Source: Omnitrophica bacterium GWA2_41_15
GTDB lineage: Bacteria; Omnitrophota; Gorgyraeia; Gygaellales; Profunditerraquicolaceae
DNA length: 64,000 nt
Direction of reading: 5' to 3'
NCBI GenBank assembly: GCA_919901915.1
Contig: CAKKQB010000028.1
Location: 38,499-102,498, forward strand
Shown: piece after piece, positions 21,648 through 57,164 of the stretch
How positions within the stretch are numbered: position 1 is the first letter of the stretch
Layout of the letters: each line of letters begins with the position of its first letter
Notes under the pieces: generated by a model
Seen by the model: the letters and a program-made list of their open reading frames with translations, nothing else
Database searches by the model: none
Told to the model about the DNA's origin: nothing
Program-made: the position numbers and the translations under genes

Positions 21648-23129
<1,482 letters not shown>

Positions 23130-28043: not shown

Positions 28044-28136
28044 GAGACTGGGTCAAATAGCTGTGTCATTCCCGCGAAAGTGGGAATCCTGAGACTGGGT
28101 CAAATAGCTGTGTCATTCCCGCGAAAGCGGGAATCC
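28044..28136. repeat. Tandem duplication of a 'gagactgggtcaaatagctgtgtcattcccgcgaaagcgggaatcc' unit
   Basis: Two nearly identical ~46-nt units at 28044-28089 and 28091-28136. Each contains the gtcattcccgcgaaagcgggaatcc palindrome. Confidence 0.8.
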
Positions 28137-30071: not shown

Positions 30072-31733
30072 TTAACTGTTACAACCGAAAAGAATAGCGT
30101 TATTCTTAGTAGATTCATCCCCTAGTTTTACGACAAAGCCGTCTGCGCCAACGACAAGATGCTTTTGCGGTTCCCATGATGTTGCTTCCCAGCCGGCTTC
30201 ATCACACGACCATCCTCCAACATAAATATTCTTACTATTCACAGCTAACGCAATAGGTTCCTCTCCAGGGCCAGAAATGCCTTTTTCACCTAACCATTGA
30301 CCCCACTTTACTGCAGGCAAAATGCCATCAATAATTTTTATAACGAACTTTTGCTTATGACCACTATATGTCCCCAAAAATGTTGTTTCCCAACCTATTT
30401 GAGGGCTGGTAACGCCAATCCCATAGGTATTGGACGTCCCTCCAACGTAAATATTATTACCATTCACAGCTAAAGCATTAACTGAATCCATTGCTTTTCC
30501 ACCTAACCACTGACCCCATTTCAATTCAGGCTTATTAGTAACGGGATTATCGAAAATTTTTATAACAAATAGTTCCCTCGTGCTAGAGCTTTTAAACTCA
30601 CCTAACATCGTTATTCCATCCAAGCCGGTTTTGCTAGTTGACTCCCCCCCAACATAGATATTGCTACCATTTACAGCTATGCATAGAACTAAATCATAGA
30701 TTTTTCCTCCTAACCATTGACCCCAAACCACCGAAGCACTCGGATCAATAAGCAACGGGTAATTTGAAAGAGACTCTTTAATAGAAACAGTTAAGGCATT
30801 ATCAGCGTTAATAATATAGGATGCAGTTTTTTTAACTCCATCAGCTGTCCAATAAACAAGAGGTTCTAAAATAGCGAGAGGTTTTTCATCGCCAAAAGCG
30901 ACATTATGGTTTAAGGCTTTACGCACAGTATCCATTACCGAGGCGCGTTTTTTAAGGTCAGAATTATCTATGCCGGAAATCTTCATTGTCCTGTAAACAT
31001 TAACACTACCGTTGGGCTGTTGTTTGAGAGTTACGCTTGCGCCAGAGTCAGTTGAAAATTTCCAGGTATATTGGCTTAAATTATCAGAATGATTAAAAGC
31101 CGTAGCTTGAATCCACTCTTTTAACATTGCGCCTTGAGCAGATTGAGAAGCAAGGTATATAATAGTGTCTGTTGGCCGTTGATAAACCTGCGCAGAGCCC
31201 AGCGGTTTAGATTTAACGGTGAACTGTTTAAAAGGGGCAGAATTATTATCTAATTCCATCGTGAACGAAGCAGTATCTTGACCGTTTTTCATCAGAAAAC
31301 GTTTTTTGACGGTGTCCGATTTAGCATCAAAAGAAACGCGCATTTCCACTGGGCTCGACCGACCGAGGGCGGAATGCCCGAGGAAGTCGGGATAATGCTC
31401 CACTCCTTCGTCATTCCGGCGCAAGCCGGAATCCAGTCCGGACTCTGACATAGCAAATGTTACAGCATCACTATTAGTTTGAAATTTTGGTTTACCTGTA
31501 GGAAATAAAGCAAGAGGCTCTGGCGCGAGTTTAGATATTTGCTTAAATATCCCCACGGTCATAGACAACTCTTGAGCTATTGGCCCAGGAATAGCCGCGT
31601 ACACGTTACCAGTTAAAAAAGGCGCCGAAGAAAACAAAATAAACACTGGTAAAATAATTAAACTAACTACTGCGGCATACTTCCTTATCATTTTCAATCC
31701 TCCATTTAAACTTCTACGCCCTTTTTCATCCAT
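30072..31733 (-). CDS. Secreted SBBP-type beta-propeller repeat protein, paralog B
   Basis: The N-terminal ~270 aa are homologous to 676..3123 (AIPGPIAQELSM..QISKLAPEP..DSGLRRNDEG). WGQWLGG...NIYVGG repeats and a C-terminal ...FGCNS. In-frame repeat copies at 31356-31392 and 31409-31435. Confidence 0.6.
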   Translation of the reverse strand: MDEKGRRSLNGGLKMIRKYAAVVSLIILPVFILFSSAPFLTGNVYAAIPGPIAQELSMTVGIFKQISKLAPEPLALFPTGKPKFQTNSDAVTFAMSESGLDSGLRRNDEGVEHYPDFLGHSALGRSSPVEMRVSFDAKSDTVKKRFLMKNGQDTASFTMELDNNSAPFKQFTVKSKPLGSAQVYQRPTDTIIYLASQSAQGAMLKEWIQATAFNHSDNLSQYTWKFSTDSGASVTLKQQPNGSVNVYRTMKISGIDNSDLKKRASVMDTVRKALNHNVAFGDEKPLAILEPLVYWTADGVKKTASYIINADNALTVSIKESLSNYPLLIDPSASVVWGQWLGGKIYDLVLCIAVNGSNIYVGGESTSKTGLDGITMLGEFKSSSTRELFVIKIFDNPVTNKPELKWGQWLGGKAMDSVNALAVNGNNIYVGGTSNTYGIGVTSPQIGWETTFLGTYSGHKQKFVIKIIDGILPAVKWGQWLGEKGISGPGEEPIALAVNSKNIYVGGWSCDEAGWEATSWEPQKHLVVGADGFVVKLGDESTKNNAILFGCNS

Positions 31734-46798: not shown

Positions 46799-48748
46799 TT
46801 ACATTATCCTCTTTACCGCTTCAACTACCAAAAGATTATCCTTAGGCGTATAAATCGAAGGATTCGTTCGCCAGATATGATCAATTTTTTTACCTAATTC
46901 CAAAATATCAACTAAATAAATATATTTGTTTCTGGCAAAATAATCAAGGAATCTTTTATGCTTCCCGTCTAATCCGGACGACTTAAAAACAAACGTATAT
47001 TTATTACTGCTTACTGCCTCTGAAACCATGGACAAACTGTCAGGAGAAGTTACAATAATTTTACTCAAACCAAGTATCCCTCCCACAGCCTCCGGAACAT
47101 TCTTTTCATTAGCTACAATTAGCATTTTACAACGTGGATAATCTCTGAACTCCTCTTTAACCAAAGCCTCTACTTCTTTTGAACTACGCCTTGAAGTTGT
47201 AATCAGAATACCTGCGTTCAAACTTTCAGATACTGCTTTTACCTGCTTAATCACCCCTAAAACCGTGTCTTTGTTAAGAGTGAAATTTTTCGTATCTCCC
47301 CCGATTAATAAACCAATGTAAAATCCAGTATTGCGTATTGCGTATTGCGTATTGCGTATTAACTTATCCGTCTCTTCTTTTAAATAAACCTCATCTATTA
47401 AATTCAGCGCTCCCTCGGTCACTACGACATTTTTTCTCTTCGGCGGGCAATCGTGTTTAGGCATTATTACCAGATCAAATCTTTTCATGCTTAATACAGA
47501 CGGCCGCATAACTACTATTGACTTAGCCATGTTTTCTCTGGCTAATATAAAATTAATCGGAGCCGCGCTTGCGCCGCAAGAAATTATTATATCGGGCTTC
47601 GCGCTTATTAAGCCATCATAAACATCACTTTTAAGAAAACTCTTCAAGCACCCTGAACAGCCCTGGCAATTATATTTACCTGCCAAAAAACTACTAAAAA
47701 TAAGCGCGTATTTAGAAAAATTGTTTTTAAATCTTATTTCTTTACTTTCAATTTTCGCCTCAATTCCCCTCTCCTTTAAAACATCACTAACGAGCCTCGC
47801 TACGCCTTGCGCCTGCCGGACATGCCCGGCTTTCGCGTCATTTAAAAGCAAAATACTTTTCTCTTTCGTATACTTCCATATTTTATAAGTCCAAAAAAGT
47901 TCTTTAGGGTATTTAAAAATATATTTTTCATAAACCCCAACCAGCCTTTGTAGATTGCTCTGAATATCTTTATCCGAATCGGCGCTCTTTTTGATTTCAA
48001 ATGCCGGCTCAATAAAAACCTTTGTAAACGGCCCTTTTACCCGCGTATAAAAAACCGGAATAATCGCGGCATCATACCTTAGCCCCAACTTCAACGCGCC
48101 GGTTGCCATAGAAGCGTATTGGCCGAAAAACTTAACCAAAACGCCGTTTTTACCGCCTTGGTCCATAGTCATACCAACCGCGCAATTATCTCCAAGCGCT
48201 TCAATTAATTGGCGTATACCGCCTTTTCTATAAATCACTTTAGAGCCTTTTAATCCACGGTATGAATTGAGCAGTTTATTCAGGCGGGGATATTTTTGCC
48301 CTTGCACGAATACAACATAAGGAAATCCAAGGTTAGCGCCGATAATATTAGAAAGCTCCCAACTGCCTTCGTGAACCACTAAAAGAATTACGCCTTTCCC
48401 TTTCTTAAAACCGGCAGAAATATTTTCCAATCCCTCGAAAGCCACATATTTATCTAAATATTTTTTATCCACCAAAGGGACAAGAAATACCTCTATCAAA
48501 TTCTGTCCAAATGCCCGATAAAATTCCTTGGTTATCCGGAATAATTCAGATGGCGGCTTCTCCTGTCCGAAGGCTGTTTTTATATTAGAATAGGCAACCG
48601 CCCTATGCCTAACATCAAAACAAAAAAGAAAATCACCCAGCCTTCTTCCCAGAAAAAAGCTAAAATTTTTAGGCAAGCATCTAATAAAAGAACCAACCGC
48701 CCTAAAAAGAATACAGCCCCAATAATCTATTATAGAATTCTTGTTCAT
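46799..48748 (-). CDS. Lipid A biosynthesis acyltransferase (LpxL/HtrB family) fused to a ~350-aa C-terminal domain of unknown function
   Basis: N-terminal LPLAT domain with the HEGSWE (H-x-N/S-WE) motif. An in-frame repeat insert NTQYAIRNTQYAIRNT is encoded by the gcgtatt heptamers at 47335-47363. Confidence 0.6.
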   Translation of the reverse strand: MNKNSIIDYWGCILFRAVGSFIRCLPKNFSFFLGRRLGDFLFCFDVRHRAVAYSNIKTAFGQEKPPSELFRITKEFYRAFGQNLIEVFLVPLVDKKYLDKYVAFEGLENISAGFKKGKGVILLVVHEGSWELSNIIGANLGFPYVVFVQGQKYPRLNKLLNSYRGLKGSKVIYRKGGIRQLIEALGDNCAVGMTMDQGGKNGVLVKFFGQYASMATGALKLGLRYDAAIIPVFYTRVKGPFTKVFIEPAFEIKKSADSDKDIQSNLQRLVGVYEKYIFKYPKELFWTYKIWKYTKEKSILLLNDAKAGHVRQAQGVARLVSDVLKERGIEAKIESKEIRFKNNFSKYALIFSSFLAGKYNCQGCSGCLKSFLKSDVYDGLISAKPDIIISCGASAAPINFILARENMAKSIVVMRPSVLSMKRFDLVIMPKHDCPPKRKNVVVTEGALNLIDEVYLKEETDKLIRNTQYAIRNTGFYIGLLIGGDTKNFTLNKDTVLGVIKQVKAVSESLNAGILITTSRRSSKEVEALVKEEFRDYPRCKMLIVANEKNVPEAVGGILGLSKIIVTSPDSLSMVSEAVSSNKYTFVFKSSGLDGKHKRFLDYFARNKYIYLVDILELGKKIDHIWRTNPSIYTPKDNLLVVEAVKRIM

Positions 48749-49796
48749 TTTTTATGATTGTTAATTCGATACGCAAGACTAAAATTCGTGAAGCGTGAGG
48801 CGTGAAGCGTGAAGCGTAAAGCCGCGCCGCGTCCTTTTCTGTGGTGATAATTGTGTCTATACCCTTATCAACAGAATCTTTGATAATTTTATCTATATCT
48901 GTCTTGATGTAATTATGGTGGTCGGGAAATTTAAAAGATAAGCCTATTTTAGCGCCGAGTGAAATAATCAAATTTTCAAAGGAATCGGGGTCTCCTATGC
49001 CGCAAAATATACTTACGCGCTTATCCTTAAGTATATCTGTCCCAAATAATTCAGCGCTTTTTTCAAGATTATATAATCCTATGGGTTTATGAACACTTTC
49101 CGCGATCAATGTTTTTGGATTAATCTTACTTAAAATATCTTTAAGCTCATCCAGTTTCACCCCAAAATCAACCTTGGTCAAAAAAAAGATATCCGCGCGC
49201 CTCAAGCAAGAAAGCGGCTCGCGCAAGATCCCCCTGGGTATCATATGGCGGTTACCAAAGGGATTAACAGCATCAATAGTTACAATCTCTAAATCTTTTT
49301 TAAGCCTCCACTGCTGAAAGCCATCATCCAACATAACCGTATCCACGCCATAATCTTTAAGCGCTCTTTTTGCCGCCCTAATTCTATCCGCATCCACAAT
49401 TACCGGAATATCGTTTAATTTTTTAGAAAGCATGTAGGGCTCATCGCCCATGGTTTCATAGCGGATAGCGGATAGCGCCTGCCTGCCGGCAAGGCAGGGA
49501 TAGCGGATAGATTTTCTTTTATAACCGCGGGTTAATATTGCGACTTTGCGGCCTTCCTGTTTTAAATACCTCGCGATAACTTCAACTAAAGAGGTTTTTC
49601 CTGTCCCGCCTACGGTAATATTACCCACGCTGATGACTTTAACATTCAGGCGATTCTGCCTAAGGAAACAAAAAAAGATTAAACCCCTGATTACTAATCC
49701 ATAAATAAGGGAGATAAGAAATAGGAAACCTTTTACAATAGCCGGGCCAATTCCCTTATATTTATCTGTAGCTAAATTATAAAGATACTTTTTCAT
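48702..49796 (-). CDS. lpxK: Tetraacyldisaccharide 4'-kinase
   Basis: P-loop GNITVGGTGKT. Two in-frame repeat inserts: SIRYPCLAGRQALSAIRY (49459-49510) and RFTPHASR (48786-48823). Confidence 0.85.
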   Translation of the reverse strand: MKKYLYNLATDKYKGIGPAIVKGFLFLISLIYGLVIRGLIFFCFLRQNRLNVKVISVGNITVGGTGKTSLVEVIARYLKQEGRKVAILTRGYKRKSIRYPCLAGRQALSAIRYETMGDEPYMLSKKLNDIPVIVDADRIRAAKRALKDYGVDTVMLDDGFQQWRLKKDLEIVTIDAVNPFGNRHMIPRGILREPLSCLRRADIFFLTKVDFGVKLDELKDILSKINPKTLIAESVHKPIGLYNLEKSAELFGTDILKDKRVSIFCGIGDPDSFENLIISLGAKIGLSFKFPDHHNYIKTDIDKIIKDSVDKGIDTIITTEKDAARLYASRFTPHASRILVLRIELTIIKNEQEFYNRLLGLYSF

Positions 49797-50084
49797 ATAT
49801 TCTGTATCTTATCACACCGAGAGACTCCTGACAACATTTTATTGTAACCTAATCGTAGCCAAATTCAACCGCAAGATCGAATCAATTAATCTCCGATGAC
49901 AAATCAAAGCAAGCGCTTTCTTTTAGAGCTGATTTAGCCTTGTTTTTACCCAATTCATAGTGTATACTTTAAGTATAAATACGTATATCGTATCCATGAT
50001 TTTCACTACGCGGTAGAACCTTCAGCAAAAGCTTTCAGCTTAAAGCTTAAAGCTTTTGCTGACAGCTGATAGCTGATAGCTAAA

Positions 50085-50249
50085 ATGCGCAAACTTATAA
50101 TTTTAATTATCCTTATTACCTTTTCCTTCACCTCCTTAGGCTTCCCCCCAGGTTCTGCCTTCCCTTCCTGTCATTCCTGCGAAAGCAGGAATCCAGTCTC
50201 AACCCTTACTTCGTTACCTAAGCGTCAACTCTGCCAATCCCCGTAATTA
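50085..50249 (+). CDS. Signal-peptide-encoding 5' segment, probably the frameshifted start of the long ORF 50497..52320
   Basis: MRKLIILIILITFSFTSLG, then a C6 tract at 50144-50149. Removing one C joins this frame to the ~120 codons that run stop-free (from 50141, no ATG) into the 607-aa ORF. Confidence 0.45.
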
Positions 50250-50496
50250 TTTTAATTTCCTCTTAGATGAAGGAGGCTATCAGCCTTCAGCTGAAAGCCG
50301 AAAGCTGATAACTGACAGCTTAACAGATGAAGCCAAAAAACTCATCCATTATTTTTTCCTCGGCATTACCCTACCCTCAACCGCGTTCTGGGTAAACCTA
50401 CAACCAACTCAATCAGACAGAATTACCTCAGATGAACTCTCTAAGACTGATTTAGGCAGAACCCTGTTAGAGCAAGACTTACAACTTAAGAAAGAT

Positions 50497-52320
50497 ATGG
50501 CTAATTATTTGCATCCCAAGAATCCCGTAGGCAAACTCTATTGGGAAAAACTCTATTCTGCAATCGGCAAAGAAAAAGCCAAGAAAGCTAAAATTACTAC
50601 CTCAAATCGTGTCTGGATTACTCCGAATCAAGCAGTGGTTATGGAAACTGAAGACGGAGCCTTGGTTGCTAAGGCAACCCTAAAAGTAATGTTGGAGAAC
50701 GAATATCTGAGTAACCAGACACCTCCGCGGTGGCCGAAGGCCTCCGCGGAGGTGGAAGCGGTTAAGAATGAGCAAACCCAACAACTCAGCGAGCAACTAA
50801 TGAAAGAAATCATCATTCCTGCAATAACTAAGGACATCAACGAAAGCCCACGCTATGCGCCCTTGCGCCAGGTTTATTACTCTTTAATATTAGCAGAGTG
50901 GTATAAGAGAAAAGTTAGCCGAAAGCTGACAGTTGATAACCCATCCCCTTACGCCCCCTATATTAACTCCGGCACAACCGCCGGTTTGGAATCCGAAGTC
51001 CCTTGGAAAAAGCAAGCAATCTGGCAGGAATACCTAAAAAGCTACCAACAAGGCGAATACAAACTTCAGGATACGCTTTTTGGCCTAAAGAGGATGTATT
51101 TTAGCGGGGGGATAATAATTGAGTTAGGCAATACCCCTACTTTAACATCTATCACTCAAAAAAAATTATTAAATAATCCCGATTTAGCAAAGGGGTTAAG
51201 CATTTCAAAGAATCCTAATGAAGCACTTGTTATAGTAAATACTATTTTGGAAGATAATAAGCAAATCGCCAGCTCGTCTATGGATGGTCAATCTAATGAT
51301 CGATCTTTGGTTTATGAGCAGTGTTCTTTTGATTTTATAAAAGATGAAAGGAAAAAAGTTTTAGACATTCAAGCTGAAACTTTATTCAAAGAAATGGATG
51401 AATTGCAACAAAGAATAAATGCGCTTAATATTGTTAGCGACCTTTCCAAATTAGTTTGTAATGAAGATACACTTATTCGTAAAATTGGTGGAATTCTCTC
51501 TTCCTTTAAAAATTTAAAACAAAAAGTAGGCGCATCTAAGGAAAGTCTTTCATATGAAAGACTTAATAATAGGCTAAAAGAATTGGAAGAGTTACTATTT
51601 GAAAGATGTTATTTTTCAGTTTTGAAAGATTTGGAGAAAGAAAGATATAATGAGATTAGGTATGTTCAGAAGTTTTTGACGCTAAGATTATGTAGGGAAT
51701 CTTTAAATCTTATTGATTCTTTCATTAAGCATTTCCCGGATTTAAGCAAAGAAGAGCGAAAAAAATACTTATGGAATACTGAACTGCAGGTAGCTAACGT
51801 CCTTATACGGGATGATCTTTTTAGGGGAATAACGGCAAAGAATGATATTGCATGGATTAAAGATATGATGATAAAGGGTAAATTTCTTAGTGTCGCACCT
51901 CCTTTAAATAACTGTTGGTTATCGGCAAATTATTTTTATTCAACATTTAGATATAATGATGAATCTCCGCGAGCAAAATTGCTTTGTATCTTAGATGCTT
52001 TCCGAATATATGGGCATGTTTTAGCAGAGGAAGAATACTTCTCCGAATCGGAAGAGGAAAAATACTCCGACGCATCGGGATGGAGAAGCTGTTTAGAGGG
52101 TGACTTAGAAGATATCCTTAGTTCTTTAGATACAAAAGAATTTTATCAGATATCATCTTTGTCTAAGTTAGTTTCCTTAATTAAAAAAGAATTGAAAATC
52201 AAGAAGAACCCTTTGCTTAAGTTATTTAGAAAAAGTTTGTTTCAAAACGATGAAATAAAAGAATGTATTACTGAAATTGCCCTTTATTTTTTAAGGCAAA
52301 AAAAGGCATCGTATCCATAA
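50497..52320 (+). CDS. Large hypothetical protein, 607 aa as tracked; about 727 aa if joined to the upstream signal peptide
   Basis: No recognisable domains and a central coiled-coil-like region. The upstream in-frame extension is open and includes a translated gtcattcctgcgaaagcaggaatcc element (VIPAKAGIQ). Confidence 0.5.
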   Translation: MANYLHPKNPVGKLYWEKLYSAIGKEKAKKAKITTSNRVWITPNQAVVMETEDGALVAKATLKVMLENEYLSNQTPPRWPKASAEVEAVKNEQTQQLSEQLMKEIIIPAITKDINESPRYAPLRQVYYSLILAEWYKRKVSRKLTVDNPSPYAPYINSGTTAGLESEVPWKKQAIWQEYLKSYQQGEYKLQDTLFGLKRMYFSGGIIIELGNTPTLTSITQKKLLNNPDLAKGLSISKNPNEALVIVNTILEDNKQIASSSMDGQSNDRSLVYEQCSFDFIKDERKKVLDIQAETLFKEMDELQQRINALNIVSDLSKLVCNEDTLIRKIGGILSSFKNLKQKVGASKESLSYERLNNRLKELEELLFERCYFSVLKDLEKERYNEIRYVQKFLTLRLCRESLNLIDSFIKHFPDLSKEERKKYLWNTELQVANVLIRDDLFRGITAKNDIAWIKDMMIKGKFLSVAPPLNNCWLSANYFYSTFRYNDESPRAKLLCILDAFRIYGHVLAEEEYFSESEEEKYSDASGWRSCLEGDLEDILSSLDTKEFYQISSLSKLVSLIKKELKIKKNPLLKLFRKSLFQNDEIKECITEIALYFLRQKKASYP

Positions 52321-52328
52321 GCGCTAAC

Positions 52329-52715
52329 TTGATAGACGAATACGATTATTTTTTTGAATTAGAATACGCAAAAATAGAACCGTTCTTTTTGGATCTAATT
52401 GCGAAATTATACTTCCAAAAATTCAAGCCTACAAATTTAGTATTATCTCATAAACGGAAAGAAGAGAAAAAGTATATTAAAGAATACATAGAGCAGGCAG
52501 TTAAAGAAAATTTAAAGATATTGGGACTCTCTGAAACGGAAGATTCATGGGCTAATGTTCAAAACGCCCATCGGGGATTGGCTAAAAAATATCATCCTGA
52601 CCTTAATCCAGGGAAAAACACGCACGAAGAGTTTATAAAAATTCAAGGTGCGTATGAGTTTTTAGAAAATGATAGAAAAAAAATTTTCCTATTAAATCGT
52701 CTGCTTCGCCGATAA
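52329..52715 (+). CDS. Small J-domain (DnaJ-like) protein
   Basis: C-terminal J domain with an HPD motif (LAKKYHPDLNPGKNTHEEFIKIQGAYEFL) and a non-homologous N-terminus. Confidence 0.6.
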   Translation: MIDEYDYFFELEYAKIEPFFLDLIAKLYFQKFKPTNLVLSHKRKEEKKYIKEYIEQAVKENLKILGLSETEDSWANVQNAHRGLAKKYHPDLNPGKNTHEEFIKIQGAYEFLENDRKKIFLLNRLLRR

Positions 52716-52741
52716 AAAGCCAAGAATTTGTTTCTTCGGCA

Positions 52742-54046
52742 GTGGTTCAAGAACCAGATTTAACCGAGTCAGCCGACGCGGTTGCCAAGGGCAGCCCCTT
52801 AGTAAACAAAGATCACCGTTTTCTTGCAAAAGATCAACCCGACTCTTCAGTGCTGGAAACAGATATCAAGGAGGATACTACCAACTCGCCGACGGCGGCT
52901 GAACTTGCCTCTTTGGCGGTGAGAATATCTAAAAGTAATCTAAAAGATGTTAATAACGCTTCTTTGAATATTATTCAAGCCAAGGTCAATCCTAATTTAA
53001 GGGGTGATTTTAAAATAGCAATTCCTGGGGCGATAGTAGATAATACCCCAAAACCTGATAAGAAAATAGACAGTTCAAATAGCATAGAGAATAAAATTTT
53101 AGATTACATAACAAGGCATAGAGTAGACCCCTATGAACTTATTATGAAAAAATTTGAAGAAGGTTACCAAGTTATTACCTTAGGAGAAACGCATCATTGC
53201 AAAAAAATGCAAACCTTCTTCCTTTCTTTAATTAAAAGGTTAAAACAATCTCAGGATAATAATGTAATAATAGCCATGGAAGATGGTAATTCTAAATACC
53301 AACCGTATATTGAAAGCTTATTCTAGAGTTTAAAAGATGTAAAACCGGAGGCCCGAATTGAACATATTAACCAAGTATTATTTGATGCAACTAAAAAATT
53401 AGGAGATATAAATCATGAAGGTGTAGGAATTAGCGGCGTAACTAACTTGCTTTGTGAAACAATAAAGATAGCCTTCGAAAATAATATCAAAGTAATCTGC
53501 GTAGATCCAAAAAGGCCGTTTACAAGACGTGATGAAGAAATGGCTAAAAATATCGGAAATATTATAGAAAAAAATCCTGGAATTAAAATTCTTTTTTATG
53601 GAGGAGCAAGTCATGCTGCAAATACGTCTTATATTCAGAAGGGTGGGTGGTATCGCGACGAAGATGATGTCGCCCTTTATACCTCTCTAGGTAAATATCT
53701 TAAGACCCGTTATTCTTCAAAAAAAACGTACACTATTATTTTATCGAGCGATAAAGACCTCTTTCCTTATTTTGATGGAGGATGGTTTAGCCGAACATTT
53801 AACTTACCTTCTAATAATCAAATAGAGAAAATGGTTTTTGCTTTAGATGGATTAAAAGAGACGATATTTTCTCAGGATCCTTGGTTGTTTACAGGCGAAG
53901 AGGATAAGTGGGAAAAAATGTATGAAGGAAATAATATGCCGAGTTGGACAAAATATAAGCGTAGCAAATACAATATGTTAGGAAATGCAGCAAATGGCCT
54001 TATCTTTTTAGGCGCAACTTATCCTACGGCAGACAAAAAAACCTGA
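52742..54046 (+). pseudogene. ChaN/Tiki (PF04187-like) family protein interrupted by an in-frame TAG at 53324-53326
   Basis: ORFs 52742..53326 and 53447..54046 share one frame and are open between them except for the single TAG. The upstream half carries ITLGETHH and the downstream half KILFYGGASHAAN, matching the two His motifs of ChaN/Tiki. Confidence 0.5.
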
Positions 54047-54085
54047 ATTGGTTCTTTAGCGCTAAAAACACAAGACCTGACACTT

Positions 54086-54430
54086 ATGGCCCATAATTCA
54101 GATACAGGTGGCATCGATCTCTCTCAAATCGAACTCACGCTTAAGGACGAAGCGTATATGTCAGGCCTTAACCCCGCTGACAGAAAAATCCTCTATGCAG
54201 CCAACGCGTTAAAAAAGGACTGGGAAAGCCTTTCACTGCTTTATGTCCATGAAATAATGCTACTTTTAAAAGACAACCTTGTCTCGGATATACAGAATAA
54301 AACCCTTTTCCTTGATATCCTCAACCAACTCAAAGTCAAGGAATTCCTTAACCCACAGGCCGTGCAATTCCTTAATCTCATCCAGTCCCAAAAGCCCCTT
54401 TCTGAGATAAAACTCGCGCTGTATAATTAA
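54086..54430 (+). CDS. Hypothetical protein
   Basis: 114-aa ORF in the island with no recognisable motifs. Confidence 0.3.
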   Translation: MAHNSDTGGIDLSQIELTLKDEAYMSGLNPADRKILYAANALKKDWESLSLLYVHEIMLLLKDNLVSDIQNKTLFLDILNQLKVKEFLNPQAVQFLNLIQSQKPLSEIKLALYN

Positions 54431-54459
54431 AATCGCAGCCAATCGCAACTGAATAATAT

Positions 54460-54490
54460 CTATCTAACAATTTTAAATTGTGGTATAATT
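54460..54490 (+). promoter_or_regulatory. Candidate extended -10 promoter and operator for mntA-hepT
   Basis: tgGTATAAT at 54481-54489 (TGn extended -10) is flanked by direct repeats taaattgt ... taaattgt. RBS aaggag lies 6 nt before the ATG at 54525. Confidence 0.4.
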
Positions 54491-54524
54491 AAATTGTTAA
54501 AAAAAAATGAGAAAGGAGCGTAGG

Positions 54525-54824
54525 ATGTTTACAAAGAGTGATATATTGAAAGTAATCCAAGAAAATACGGATGAAATCAAAACCTACGGTATTAAAAGAA
54601 TAGGAATTTTTGGTTCATTTGCTAGGGCCGCAGAGAAGGATAAAAGCGACATTGATGTACTTATTGAATTTAAGAAAGGCAAAAAAGCGTTTGACAATTA
54701 TATGGAGACTAAATTTCTTTTGGAAAAGATATTTCATCGCAGGGTTGATTTAGTAATAAAAGAGGCATTAAAGCCTGAAATTAAAAAAAATATACTTCGT
54801 GAGGTAGTATATGCGAGAATATAA
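54525..54824 (+). CDS. mntA: MntA-type minimal nucleotidyltransferase antitoxin
   Basis: GIFGSFARAAEKDKSDIDVLIEF matches the GS..G....D.D motif of pol-beta-like nucleotidyltransferases. It overlaps the hepT start. The first ATG with an RBS is at 54525; the ORF track starts at 54507. Confidence 0.8.
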   Translation: MFTKSDILKVIQENTDEIKTYGIKRIGIFGSFARAAEKDKSDIDVLIEFKKGKKAFDNYMETKFLLEKIFHRRVDLVIKEALKPEIKKNILREVVYARI

Positions 54825-55164
54825 TCTTTATTTAAACGATATCCTTAAGAGTATTAAGAAGATAGAGAGAGAGAGAGAGATATATATATATACAAAAGGG
54901 CTAACCTTAAAACAGGTAATGAAGAATGAATTAGTCGTTGATGGAGTTGCCAAGAATCTGGAGGTGATAGGTGAAGCGGTAAAAAATATTCCTTTCCAGA
55001 TAAAAGAAAAATATCCGAAGATTGAATGGAAGAAAATTGCCGGTTTAAGGGATATTTTAACCCACGAATATTTTAGTATAGATTTGGAAGTCTTATGGGA
55101 TATTACACAGAATAAATTACCTATTTTGAAAAAGCAGATTTTAACATTACTGCTTACGAAGTGA
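54811..55164 (+). CDS. hepT: HepT-type HEPN toxin (DUF86)
   Basis: R-x4-H-x-Y motif RDILTHEY near the C-terminus; 117 aa. It overlaps mntA by 14 nt. Confidence 0.8.
   Translation: MREYNLYLNDILKSIKKIEREREIYIYTKGLTLKQVMKNELVVDGVAKNLEVIGEAVKNIPFQIKEKYPKIEWKKIAGLRDILTHEYFSIDLEVLWDITQNKLPILKKQILTLLLTK
54874..54902. repeat. Dinucleotide repeat (AG)8(AT)6 inside hepT
   Basis: The run agagagagagagagagatatatatatata is read as EREREIYIY. Confidence 0.85.
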
Positions 55165-55483
55165 AATAAGGTAATTCTCGCGGCATTGGCCTCAACCAAC
55201 TCAAGGCCAATGCCTCTTTTTCAATATCAAGTAGATACAATCCGCCGCCAAACGCAGTCTCTAAAATCCTGAATTGTGGTTCAGTGCTAGAGCCAATGGA
55301 TAACGCCCGCATTTTCTGAAATAACGGCAGTTCTTTACTCAACGCCCTTATAACCTTGGTCAGTTCCTCTTCAATATCAACCTTGTCATTACTGTAGCGC
55401 GACCAGATTTTATCTTCATGGCTTAATTTTAAACAGCCGGTCCTAACACCTGCCTCAATTATTTTTTTATCGGAATAATTCAT
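55154..55483 (-). CDS. Hypothetical protein; possibly an N-terminal fragment of a SAM-dependent methyltransferase
   Basis: RALSIGSSTEPQFRILETAFGGGLYLLDIEKEAL weakly resembles methyltransferase motif I. The ORF ends exactly where the plus-strand island begins. Confidence 0.3.
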   Translation of the reverse strand: MNYSDKKIIEAGVRTGCLKLSHEDKIWSRYSNDKVDIEEELTKVIRALSKELPLFQKMRALSIGSSTEPQFRILETAFGGGLYLLDIEKEALALSWLRPMPRELPYFTS

Positions 55484-56795: not shown

Positions 56796-57164
56796 TTAAC
56801 CACCATTCACCTTCTTTTTAAGTGAGCTTATTAAGGCATTTAACATCTTCTTAATTTCAAGCAGATCTTTTACTAATAAATTTAATTCTTTAGAAAAAAC
56901 AAACTTCAGATTACTGGATATAATCAACAAAGTTTCTATCTCGCCACAAGAAGCTAATGCGATATATAAAAACTGAATATATTCATTAGTATATCTTCGG
57001 GTGTAACCTTCAGATATATTTGCTGGCACAGAAACCGCGGCTCTTCTAATTTGACTCACTAATCCATATAATTCTTCTTTAGGAAATGGGATTGTTTCTT
57101 GATATATCTTAGTTACAAAATCTACTGCTTTTTGCCAAACAATTAATTCCTTAAAGTCTTTCAC
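56796..57164 (-). CDS. Four-helix-bundle protein (TIGR02436 / 23S rRNA intervening-sequence protein family, Avd-like)
   Basis: 122 aa with IVWQKA...RRAAVSVPANISEGY, typical of this family. Confidence 0.7.
   Translation of the reverse strand: MKDFKELIVWQKAVDFVTKIYQETIPFPKEELYGLVSQIRRAAVSVPANISEGYTRRYTNEYIQFLYIALASCGEIETLLIISSNLKFVFSKELNLLVKDLLEIKKMLNALISSLKKKVNGG

Follow-up and report, generated by a model that had tools for sequence, protein, structure and literature searches.

In a 64,000-nucleotide (nt) stretch of the Omnitrophica bacterium GWA2_41_15 genome (contig CAKKQB010000028.1, positions 38,499 to 102,498; the whole stretch is called the window here, and positions are counted from its first letter), a block of plus-strand reading frames lies between lpxK and waaA, inside a lipopolysaccharide (LPS) gene cluster read from the minus strand. 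The open reading frames (ORFs) at 50085-54430 of this block are one modular gene of ~4.35 kb, conceptually encoding 1,448 amino acids (aa), which belongs to a protein family of the Omnitrophota and is interrupted by five lesions. The block as a whole is probably best explained as a recently inactivated pseudogene of this family which, together with a HepT/MntA pair, was inserted into the waaA-lpxK slot. The original prediction, made from the DNA letters, had instead described six plus-strand genes whose content looked effector-like or defence-like. A system built of six genes is not supported: of the eight ORFs, six proved to be fragments of the one modular gene, and the J domain and the ChaN/Tiki-like domain, which had been taken for a separate adaptor and a separate protease, are both cargo inside one protein.

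All ORFs described earlier for this region were recovered at the same coordinates, as were the signal-peptide protein, the J domain, the TAG codon, the C6 tract and the dinucleotide repeat. The switch of strand between lpxK and waaA was likewise confirmed: the window has 43 ORFs that reach 200 aa or more, of which 40 lie on the minus strand, and the 607-aa ORF (50497-52320) is the sole genuine long ORF on the plus strand.

The end pieces belong to one protein family

The 5' end of the gene was defined by homology that crosses a frame boundary. A signal peptide, MRKLIILIILITFSFTSLGFPP (50085-50150, plus strand, as are all parts of the gene; best 15-mer mean Kyte-Doolittle value 2.69), lies in a frame different from that of the rest of the gene and joins the conserved N-terminal domain (N-domain; ~350 aa, 50149-51198) in frame only if the C6 tract at 50144-50149, the first lesion, loses one C. 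The resulting C5 version would read SLGFPQVLPSL, compared with GLAQVLPSL in P0002, a family member from the same metagenome sample that reads straight across the equivalent point; the family consensus is GFAQ. The annotated ATG (50497) lies within the N-domain, whose homology sets in 116 codons before it and reaches the signal peptide across the C6 tract. Relative to other family members, the N-domain of the window is 57-70% identical and retains all 45 of the invariant columns of the family alignment (A2).

The 3' end was assigned in the same way. The conserved C-terminal domain (C-domain) occupies 54047-54430, with GGIDLS starting at 54107, and contains the 114-aa ORF (54086-54430). This ORF aligns with residues 997-1105 of the 1,108-aa family member P0005 (61% identity over 109 aa), shows 61-64% identity to the C-terminal ends of P0005, P0133 and P0130, and in 17 long members of the family finds its match at the very C-terminus. 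Among full-length proteins, the 20 whose N-domains are closest all carry a C-terminus that the 114-aa ORF detects, and every full-length protein matched by this ORF falls among those 20. The subtypes of the two domains co-vary (Spearman rho 0.62, p=9e-4), the same-sample member P0002 reaches 68% identity in its N-domain and 63% in its C-domain, and no second copy of either domain occurs in the window. The first and last pieces are thus the end domains of one protein family, and the ORFs are therefore one gene, whose repaired product of 1,448 aa has a length typical for the family.

Between these ends, every ORF junction is either a homopolymer tract at which open frames overlap or a single in-frame stop. 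Downstream of the N-domain lies the first cargo region (51202-52303), of ~370 aa, all-helical and with a guanine-plus-cytosine (GC) content of 0.31. At the second lesion, an A7 tract (52298-52304), the frames of the 607-aa and J-domain ORFs overlap, and the upstream frame stops 5 codons past the tract. The J domain, with its HPD motif, is encoded at 52515-52682, which corresponds to residues 63-118 of a 128-aa ORF (52329-52715). The third lesion is an A8 tract (52676-52683) at which the ChaN frame opens exactly, after TGATAG, the J frame stopping 10 codons later. From there one frame carries a linker rich in S, P, T, D and E followed by the N-terminal half of a ChaN/Tiki-like domain (52682-53323), the C-terminal half of that domain (53327-54043) and the C-domain ORF, and is broken only by an in-frame TAG (53324-53326, lesion 4) and an in-frame TGA (54044-54046, lesion 5).

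Could these pieces be six independent cooperating genes, namely a secreted protein, a J-domain adaptor, a Tiki-like protease, a 114-aa protein and HepT/MntA? Public annotations do call each fragment as a gene of its own, MntA matches a PADLOC candidate system, and the block is low in GC and lineage-specific. Such a gene set would not account for end pieces that are terminal domains of one family with co-varying subtypes, nor for junctions that consist of homopolymer frameshifts or lone stops; in addition, three of the five fragment ORFs start with TTG or GTG, no similar set of genes occurs in 80 relatives or in metagenome contigs, and PADLOC recognizes nothing but MntA. We regard six separate genes as highly improbable. 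The modules of the single gene do not lie in one uninterrupted polypeptide, and because three frameshifts and two stops interrupt it, the gene was filed as a pseudogene of the family. Inactivation was recent, since the N- and C-domains still keep every family-invariant residue, and a gene with five lesions is most likely dead.

The lesions are real

The lesions are a property of the DNA, as judged from separate assemblies. The window is identical to the ENA contig NODE_43 (121.7 kb, SPAdes, coverage 33.8) save for one single-nucleotide polymorphism (SNP) and one AG unit. The SNP, A/G at 53486, exchanges Ile and Val inside the ChaN-like fragment; over 21.8 kb the two sequences otherwise differ just in the AG unit of HepT. 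Three contigs, from NCBI, ENA and Logan assemblies, carry the 607-aa and 128-aa fragments. Two paralogs of the same sample, P0002 (1,238 aa, coverage 32) and P0004 (1,093 aa), are uninterrupted. Sequencing or assembly errors in a gene that is intact in the organism would be expected at just such places as three of the five lesions, since C6, A7 and A8 tracts are classic sites of indel errors. Against this stand the ~33x coverage of the SPAdes assembly, the occurrence of identical broken ORFs on all three contigs, and the nature of the other two lesions, which are nonsense substitutions. None of the 40 long minus-strand ORFs of the 64 kb is interrupted, the assembly also contains intact paralogs, and all five lesions are shared by assemblies that do differ from each other in the (AG)n repeat and in one SNP. 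Errors are thus a very unlikely source of the interruptions.

Frameshifts at homopolymer tracts are also what a phase-variable contingency gene, or one read by programmed frameshifting or readthrough, would display, and the neighbouring HepT does vary at a repeat between assemblies. To be switched on, such a gene would need three independent slips of differing direction (+1, -1 and -1) plus suppression of both TAG and TGA; because of this combination of shifts and nonsense codons, single-switch phase variation and simple recoding are excluded. The C6, A7 and A8 tracts are constant between assemblies, the intact paralogs have no need for recoding, and we find regulated expression of this kind barely credible. 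Reassignment or recoding of a stop codon was ruled out, all three stops being in normal use in the window, where the ordinary long ORFs end in TAA (26), TAG (10) and TGA (7).

The original prediction had placed lesions or contingency features in three of six genes. The lesions and the variable repeat it named are present; three further lesions, the A7 tract, the A8 tract and the TGA, had been overlooked.

A large family with conserved ends and exchangeable middles

To define the family, the frame of the 607-aa ORF was extended upstream to 50197 and used as a query. It matched more than 355 proteins, nearly all of them labelled Omnitrophota or Omnitrophica, and in each of them only about the first 300 residues of the query were matched, a part that takes in the 100 codons preceding the annotated ATG. 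An exhaustive phmmer search of the window N-domain against 1.84 billion cluster representatives (clusters at 50% identity) returned 7,385 representatives with E<=1e-3, and 5,557 when the threshold was set to E<=1e-30. Judged from these searches, the family is very large and appears to be restricted to the Omnitrophota. A viral origin was rejected, with only 4 loci found in 2.9 million viral contigs.

Family members follow a fixed order: a signal peptide, an N-domain of ~320 aa, a middle that is unrelated between members, and a C-terminal segment of ~105-120 residues counted from GGID(L/F). There is one N-domain per protein, always N-terminal (residues ~30-400), in proteins of 600 to 7,391 aa. 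The N-terminus is strongly conserved in the pattern M.KK..K.LSL.LCF.L.F(E/Q)Q.GFAQ; among 201 members with a complete N-terminus, 176 begin with K/R residues followed by a hydrophobic stretch and only 9 have another transmembrane-like stretch. Invariant motifs of the N-domain are FWVNL.P, TD.G, E.DL.LKKD, R.WI.P, RQ.Y.SL, GEY and YFSGG. At the other end, GG[IVL]D[LFM] was found 85-145 aa from the C-terminus in 76 of 96 further representatives.

The middles are highly diverse. Precomputed Pfam annotations of the N-domain matches included HEAT, radical SAM/B12, several methyltransferases, FHA, metallophosphoesterase, M23 peptidase and DnaJ, and most proteins had none. A census of 35 complete members yielded M23, HD, HEAT, PPDK_N, glucose-6-phosphate isomerase, guanylate kinase, metallophosphoesterase, FHA, DnaJ, GNAT, methyltransferase, ARMT1 and GT9, and no Pfam domain was common to more than two of the 35. 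TPR repeats and M28 peptidases are further cargo seen across the family, and P0097 is an intact member with J cargo.

The N- and C-domains themselves had no match in Pfam, NCBIfam or PADLOC, nor in a profile search against PDB sequences. Their structure was modelled with AlphaFold2 (AF2) in P0089, a minimal member of 608 aa, from a 73-sequence alignment (predicted template modelling score 0.70). The predicted N-domain is alpha/beta (residues 50-340, predicted local distance difference test (pLDDT) ~90) and the predicted C-domain consists of five helices (residues 510-608, pLDDT 80-93). Foldseek gave NheA as its best PDB hit (E 0.39, probability 0.08), which was not trusted, and no match in BFVD; a full-text literature search retrieved no description of the family. 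The family is therefore new to Pfam and NCBIfam and had no structural relative among PDB and BFVD entries. Other members sit singly among housekeeping genes, such as ABC-F/ATP synthase, YmdB/RNase Y, ComEC/BamD/LptE and OsmC/two-component genes.

Cargo of the broken gene

The J domain in the 128-aa protein, proposed from its HPD motif, was borne out by Pfam DnaJ (45.3 bits against a cutoff of 27.8), with HPD in the context KKYHPDLNPG, and matches J domains in the PDB down to 8e-7. In carrying HPD it resembles J-domain proteins in general. The second cargo domain had been read earlier as a ChaN/Tiki-family frame split by one TAG, and the TAG stands where it was described. PF04187 (ChaN/Tiki) matches the first half, a 194-aa ORF, at E=4e-5, and when the halves are joined the score rises to 32.8 bits against a gathering threshold of 27.7, the match being partial and covering model positions 7-60 of 213. 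A match to Erythro_esterase, assigned to the C-terminal half, was weak (E=0.009), and the region had no match among PDB sequences. The motifs LGETHH and IAMED, in the N-terminal half, and GGASH, in the C-terminal half, can be read directly from the sequence; GExH...E...R...GxxH motifs mark the Tiki/ChaN/erythromycin-esterase superfamily, and the GExH...E...GxxH motifs of the putative domain are typical of the ChaN/Tiki fold. Free-standing J co-chaperones are cytoplasmic and ChaN/Tiki proteins are lipoproteins; both differ from the copies in the window, which are internal to a signal-peptide protein. The helical cargo region 1 had no detectable homologs, and a single-sequence AF2 model of this 372-aa region was poor (pLDDT 44) and uninformative.

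Palindromic elements were also observed in the gene and around it. A hairpin resembling repetitive extragenic palindromic (REP) elements, TCATTCC(NGC)GAAAG(CN)GGAATC, has seven copies in the window against 0 expected (474-496, 2852-2874, 23053-23075, 28066-28088, 28113-28135, 31411-31433 and 50171-50193), its stem pairing being maintained by compensatory changes. The last of these copies lies in frame within the N-domain and encodes PAKAGIQ. Two other in-frame palindromes, at 50276-50305 and 50720-50754, fall in loops where homologs bear different low-complexity inserts. These elements resemble the in-frame palindromic elements of Rickettsia.

A HepT/MntA pair with a variable repeat

Downstream of the broken gene, and separate from it, lies a predicted type VII toxin-antitoxin (TA) pair. 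The original assignment to HepT/MntA held, with Pfam scores of 90.9 bits for HepT-like (cutoff 23.5) and 53 bits for NTP_transf_2 (cutoff 21). The MntA-type nucleotidyltransferase antitoxin (54507-54824, plus strand; likely start at 54525, with AGGAG upstream) carries a GSX10DXD motif, GSFARAAEKDKSDID, and the HepT-type RNase toxin (54811-55164, plus strand) carries RDILTHEY, which fits Rx4HxY. PADLOC matched MntA to the candidate system PDC-S09 (5e-36) and had no match for any fragment of the large gene. As in known HepT/MntA pairs, which combine a HEPN RNase that cleaves RNA with an MNT nucleotidyltransferase that AMPylates it, the antitoxin is upstream and overlaps the toxin, here by 14 nt. 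The window pair differs from typical ones in scoring below the NCBIfam equivalog cutoff of 60 (MntA 47.1, HepT_toxin 39.1) and in having inside HepT an (AG)8(AT)6 microsatellite (54864-54891) whose length varies between assemblies.

This microsatellite is the sole dinucleotide repeat of at least 6 units in the 64 kb. The window version, (AG)8, present on a 118-kb NCBI/ENA contig, leaves HepT intact, and the 121.7-kb contig has (AG)9, by which HepT is frameshifted into ORFs of 31 and 81 aa. The toxin frame is switched by slippage of its internal (AG)n repeat, so that the contingency repeat suggested originally is supported for HepT, or at the least the tract is unstable. It offers a natural example of a toxin reading frame that differs between assemblies of one population. 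A separate metagenome contig (L084, 16-1064) carries a C-domain of the family followed directly by a PIN-like ORF and a 57-aa ORF resembling a TA module, the same order of C-domain and TA pair as in the window; this may be due to chance.

The block is a lineage-specific insertion in a variable slot

To compare the site with that of relatives, GTDB species genomes were scanned with WaaA, which gave 80 Omnitrophota loci. The order and orientation xerC-waaA-...-lpxK-lpxL/Elm1 is conserved in these loci, and the spacer between waaA and lpxK (49796-55467 in the window) is a variable slot of 5 bp to 6.8 kb that in these loci holds 0-10 co-directional housekeeping genes (GreA, UbiA-like, cytidine deaminase, OsmC, STAS-PilZ, HAD, GDT1, HD-GYP and QueC-like). 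The N-domain, C-domain, J, ChaN, helical cargo, MntA and HepT were absent from all 80. The comparison of lpxK and waaA in related genomes that had been proposed therefore found no locus with any component of the block, which agrees with the proposal that the block is foreign to the LPS cluster.

The right edge was located in ORF109 (55154-55483, minus strand), a remnant that retains the first ~90 aa of a methyltransferase-like gene of 298 aa, of which one relative (L004, 8655-9551) has an intact copy. The homology ends at 55208, the right border of the inserted block; the last 16 codons of ORF109 are the complement of the 3' end of HepT, and the rest of the 298-aa gene is nowhere in the window. 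Because the block is absent from the 80 loci and ORF109 is truncated, the block (~49.8-55.2 kb) is a lineage-specific insertion in the variable waaA-lpxK slot that deleted part of a neighbouring gene. No tRNA-linked integration or RNA element was found at the block, a T-box match (23 bits against a gathering threshold of 93) being dismissed as chance, and no convincing flanking direct or inverted repeats mark a mobile element. No integrase specific to the block was found, and the possibility that xerC belongs to an island was rejected, as xerC adjoins waaA in all 80 relatives. On the left, lpxK (minus) and the broken gene (plus) diverge from an intergenic region (49797-50084) that contains a 20-nt palindrome at 50022-50062, and sigma-70-like sites occur at 50059-50101, promoter-like sites being no more numerous than in shuffled controls.

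A comparison of GC content with the flanks, also proposed earlier, separated the parts of the block. Measured against the window (mean 0.399, standard deviation (SD) 0.035), GC falls short of the mean by over 2 SD in the variable middle (0.31-0.36) and in the TA pair (0.31-0.32), and five of the seven lowest-GC 500-bp windows fall in the block; the N-domain (0.43) and C-domain (0.42) are not outlying. Two intact paralogs (L002, 1102-4818; L003, 825-4106) display the same mosaic, with ends at ~0.40-0.44 and a middle at ~0.35. As the paralogs share this high-low-high profile, low GC is a property of the variable cargo and no evidence for a foreign origin of the whole gene. These results suggest that the cargo cassettes have another history, or are under another constraint, than the conserved ends.

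Two further features of the cluster were noted. Between xerC and waaA, a 122-aa four-helix ORF (56796-57164, minus strand; Pfam 23S_rRNA_IVP, weak bAvd match) has no homolog in the 80 relatives, where xerC directly adjoins waaA, and it is a second small insertion specific to the lineage. A 649-aa fusion of Lip_A_acyltrans (lipid A acyltransferase) with an Elm1-like part (46799-48748, minus strand) overlaps lpxK by 47 nt, and the 80 loci share both this fusion and its overlap.

Discussion

Several points weigh against the explanation offered here. No intact ortholog with J plus ChaN cargo was found: the repaired middle (945 aa) returned itself alone from 5.8 billion proteins, JGI metagenome contigs contained no protein match for the cargo, and a DNA pattern across the C tract, with the tract length left variable, had no match. 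For want of an intact gene with the same cargo, the A7 and A8 junctions were placed by frame geometry and not by homology. The fragments could still be made as separate proteins, and their start sites are not judgeable because Shine-Dalgarno signals are weak genome-wide. The two assemblies that agree on the lesions may stem from overlapping read sets, and the ChaN/Tiki assignment rests on a partial Pfam match of about a quarter of the model. As to the family, its members share no conserved neighbour gene in five contexts, no fold match, conserved neighbour or literature description was found that would fix its function, and domain logic is all that the effector argument below draws on.

The locus itself is ordinary, an LPS operon whose variable slot has taken up a TA pair and a gene that is now dead. 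When pseudogenes of this kind are annotated automatically they come apart into a number of hypothetical proteins, among which the 114-aa ORF then resembles an orphan gene. As the original prediction held, the block matches no catalogued system, Pfam, NCBIfam and PADLOC yielding none for the large gene. The interest lies in the family, with 7,385 clusters in which a fixed signal peptide, N-domain and C-domain surround freely exchangeable cargo.

What the family does can be approached from its cargo. Intact members would be exported through Sec, with the N- and C-domains that they share probably acting as modules by which the proteins are exported, anchored or delivered, and the exchangeable cargo would supply the activity. 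One possibility is that the proteins remain in the periplasm or on the surface of the producer, for instance as an envelope scaffold or coat that assembles through the conserved end domains and displays the middle, the enzyme-like domains having other roles. A Sec-type signal without a further transmembrane segment would fit such a location, as would cargo that could plausibly work outside the cytoplasm (HEAT and TPR repeats, M23 and M28 peptidases), the position of single members among envelope and housekeeping genes (e.g., BamD/LptE/MurJ or lpxK/waaA), and the lack of adjacent immunity or secretion genes. J domains, radical SAM/B12 proteins, S-adenosylmethionine (SAM) methyltransferases, guanylate kinase, glucose-6-phosphate isomerase and PPDK_N speak against it, as such cargo needs ATP, SAM, Fe-S assembly or Hsp70, none of which a periplasm would be expected to offer. 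An envelope role is quite conceivable, and we remain somewhat doubtful of it.

Because J domains, radical SAM proteins, SAM methyltransferases, guanylate kinase and PPDK_N need cytoplasmic partners or cofactors, the most economical reading, offered as a hypothesis, is that the cargo would act inside another cell, that of a host or of prey. Omnitrophota are abundant, uncultured and ultra-small, and are suspected to be predatory, parasitic or host-dependent. From the domain content, delivery of cargo into other cells is plausible. Of the effector-like content originally suggested, nothing stands for an island of genes, and what survives is this argument about the family as a whole. In its strongest form the argument would make polymorphic effectors, deployed throughout the phylum, of the whole family, its signal peptide and both conserved ends directing export and translocation into host or prey, a proposal that we think unlikely as it stands; under it, the family may also be the principle on which the giant proteins of the phylum are built. 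It is equally doubtful that the middle delivers enzymes that work only in cytoplasm, that the J cargo recruits the Hsp70 of the victim and that the present locus is a discarded effector allele. Cytoplasm-type enzymes behind a Sec signal nonetheless provide a testable handle on how Omnitrophota affect other cells.

Comparison with known systems

The family shares several features with polymorphic toxins (Rhs/YD, CdiA, LXG and MafB), which likewise have many paralogs per genome, combine conserved trafficking modules with a variable payload, and have a variable part of lower GC. It differs from such systems, in which a variable C-terminal toxin is followed by its cognate immunity gene, in that both ends are conserved, the payload is in the middle and a Sec signal peptide is present; moreover, no immunity gene, dedicated secretion gene or conserved small downstream gene stands next to family members in five contexts, and these toxins have no sequence or fold match to the N- and C-domains. 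Type IX cargo proteins and autotransporters similarly combine an N-terminal Sec signal and a conserved C-terminal domain of ~100 aa with diverse passengers. Their C-terminal part is a beta-sandwich or beta-barrel, whereas the C-domain of the family is predicted to be a helical bundle, without a Pfam or NCBIfam match to the type IX C-terminal domain, and is accompanied by the extra N-domain of 320 aa.

The closest comparison within the phylum is with the Archaeovorins, giant proteins of Omnitrophota that reach at least 10-100 kaa and have many transmembrane helices and adjacent loci for type II secretion systems and type IV pili (West-Roberts et al., 2023, bioRxiv 10.1101/2023.11.21.568195; 2026 preprint 10.64898/2026.06.07.730766). 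The family with conserved N- and C-domains, which reaches 7,391 aa, is not described in these two reports. Both occur in the same phylum, have signal peptides and begin with N-terminal regions that lack known domains, and the internal domains of Archaeovorins, namely HEAT, radical SAM, PPDK_N, methyltransferases and TPR, resemble the cargo repertoire of the family.

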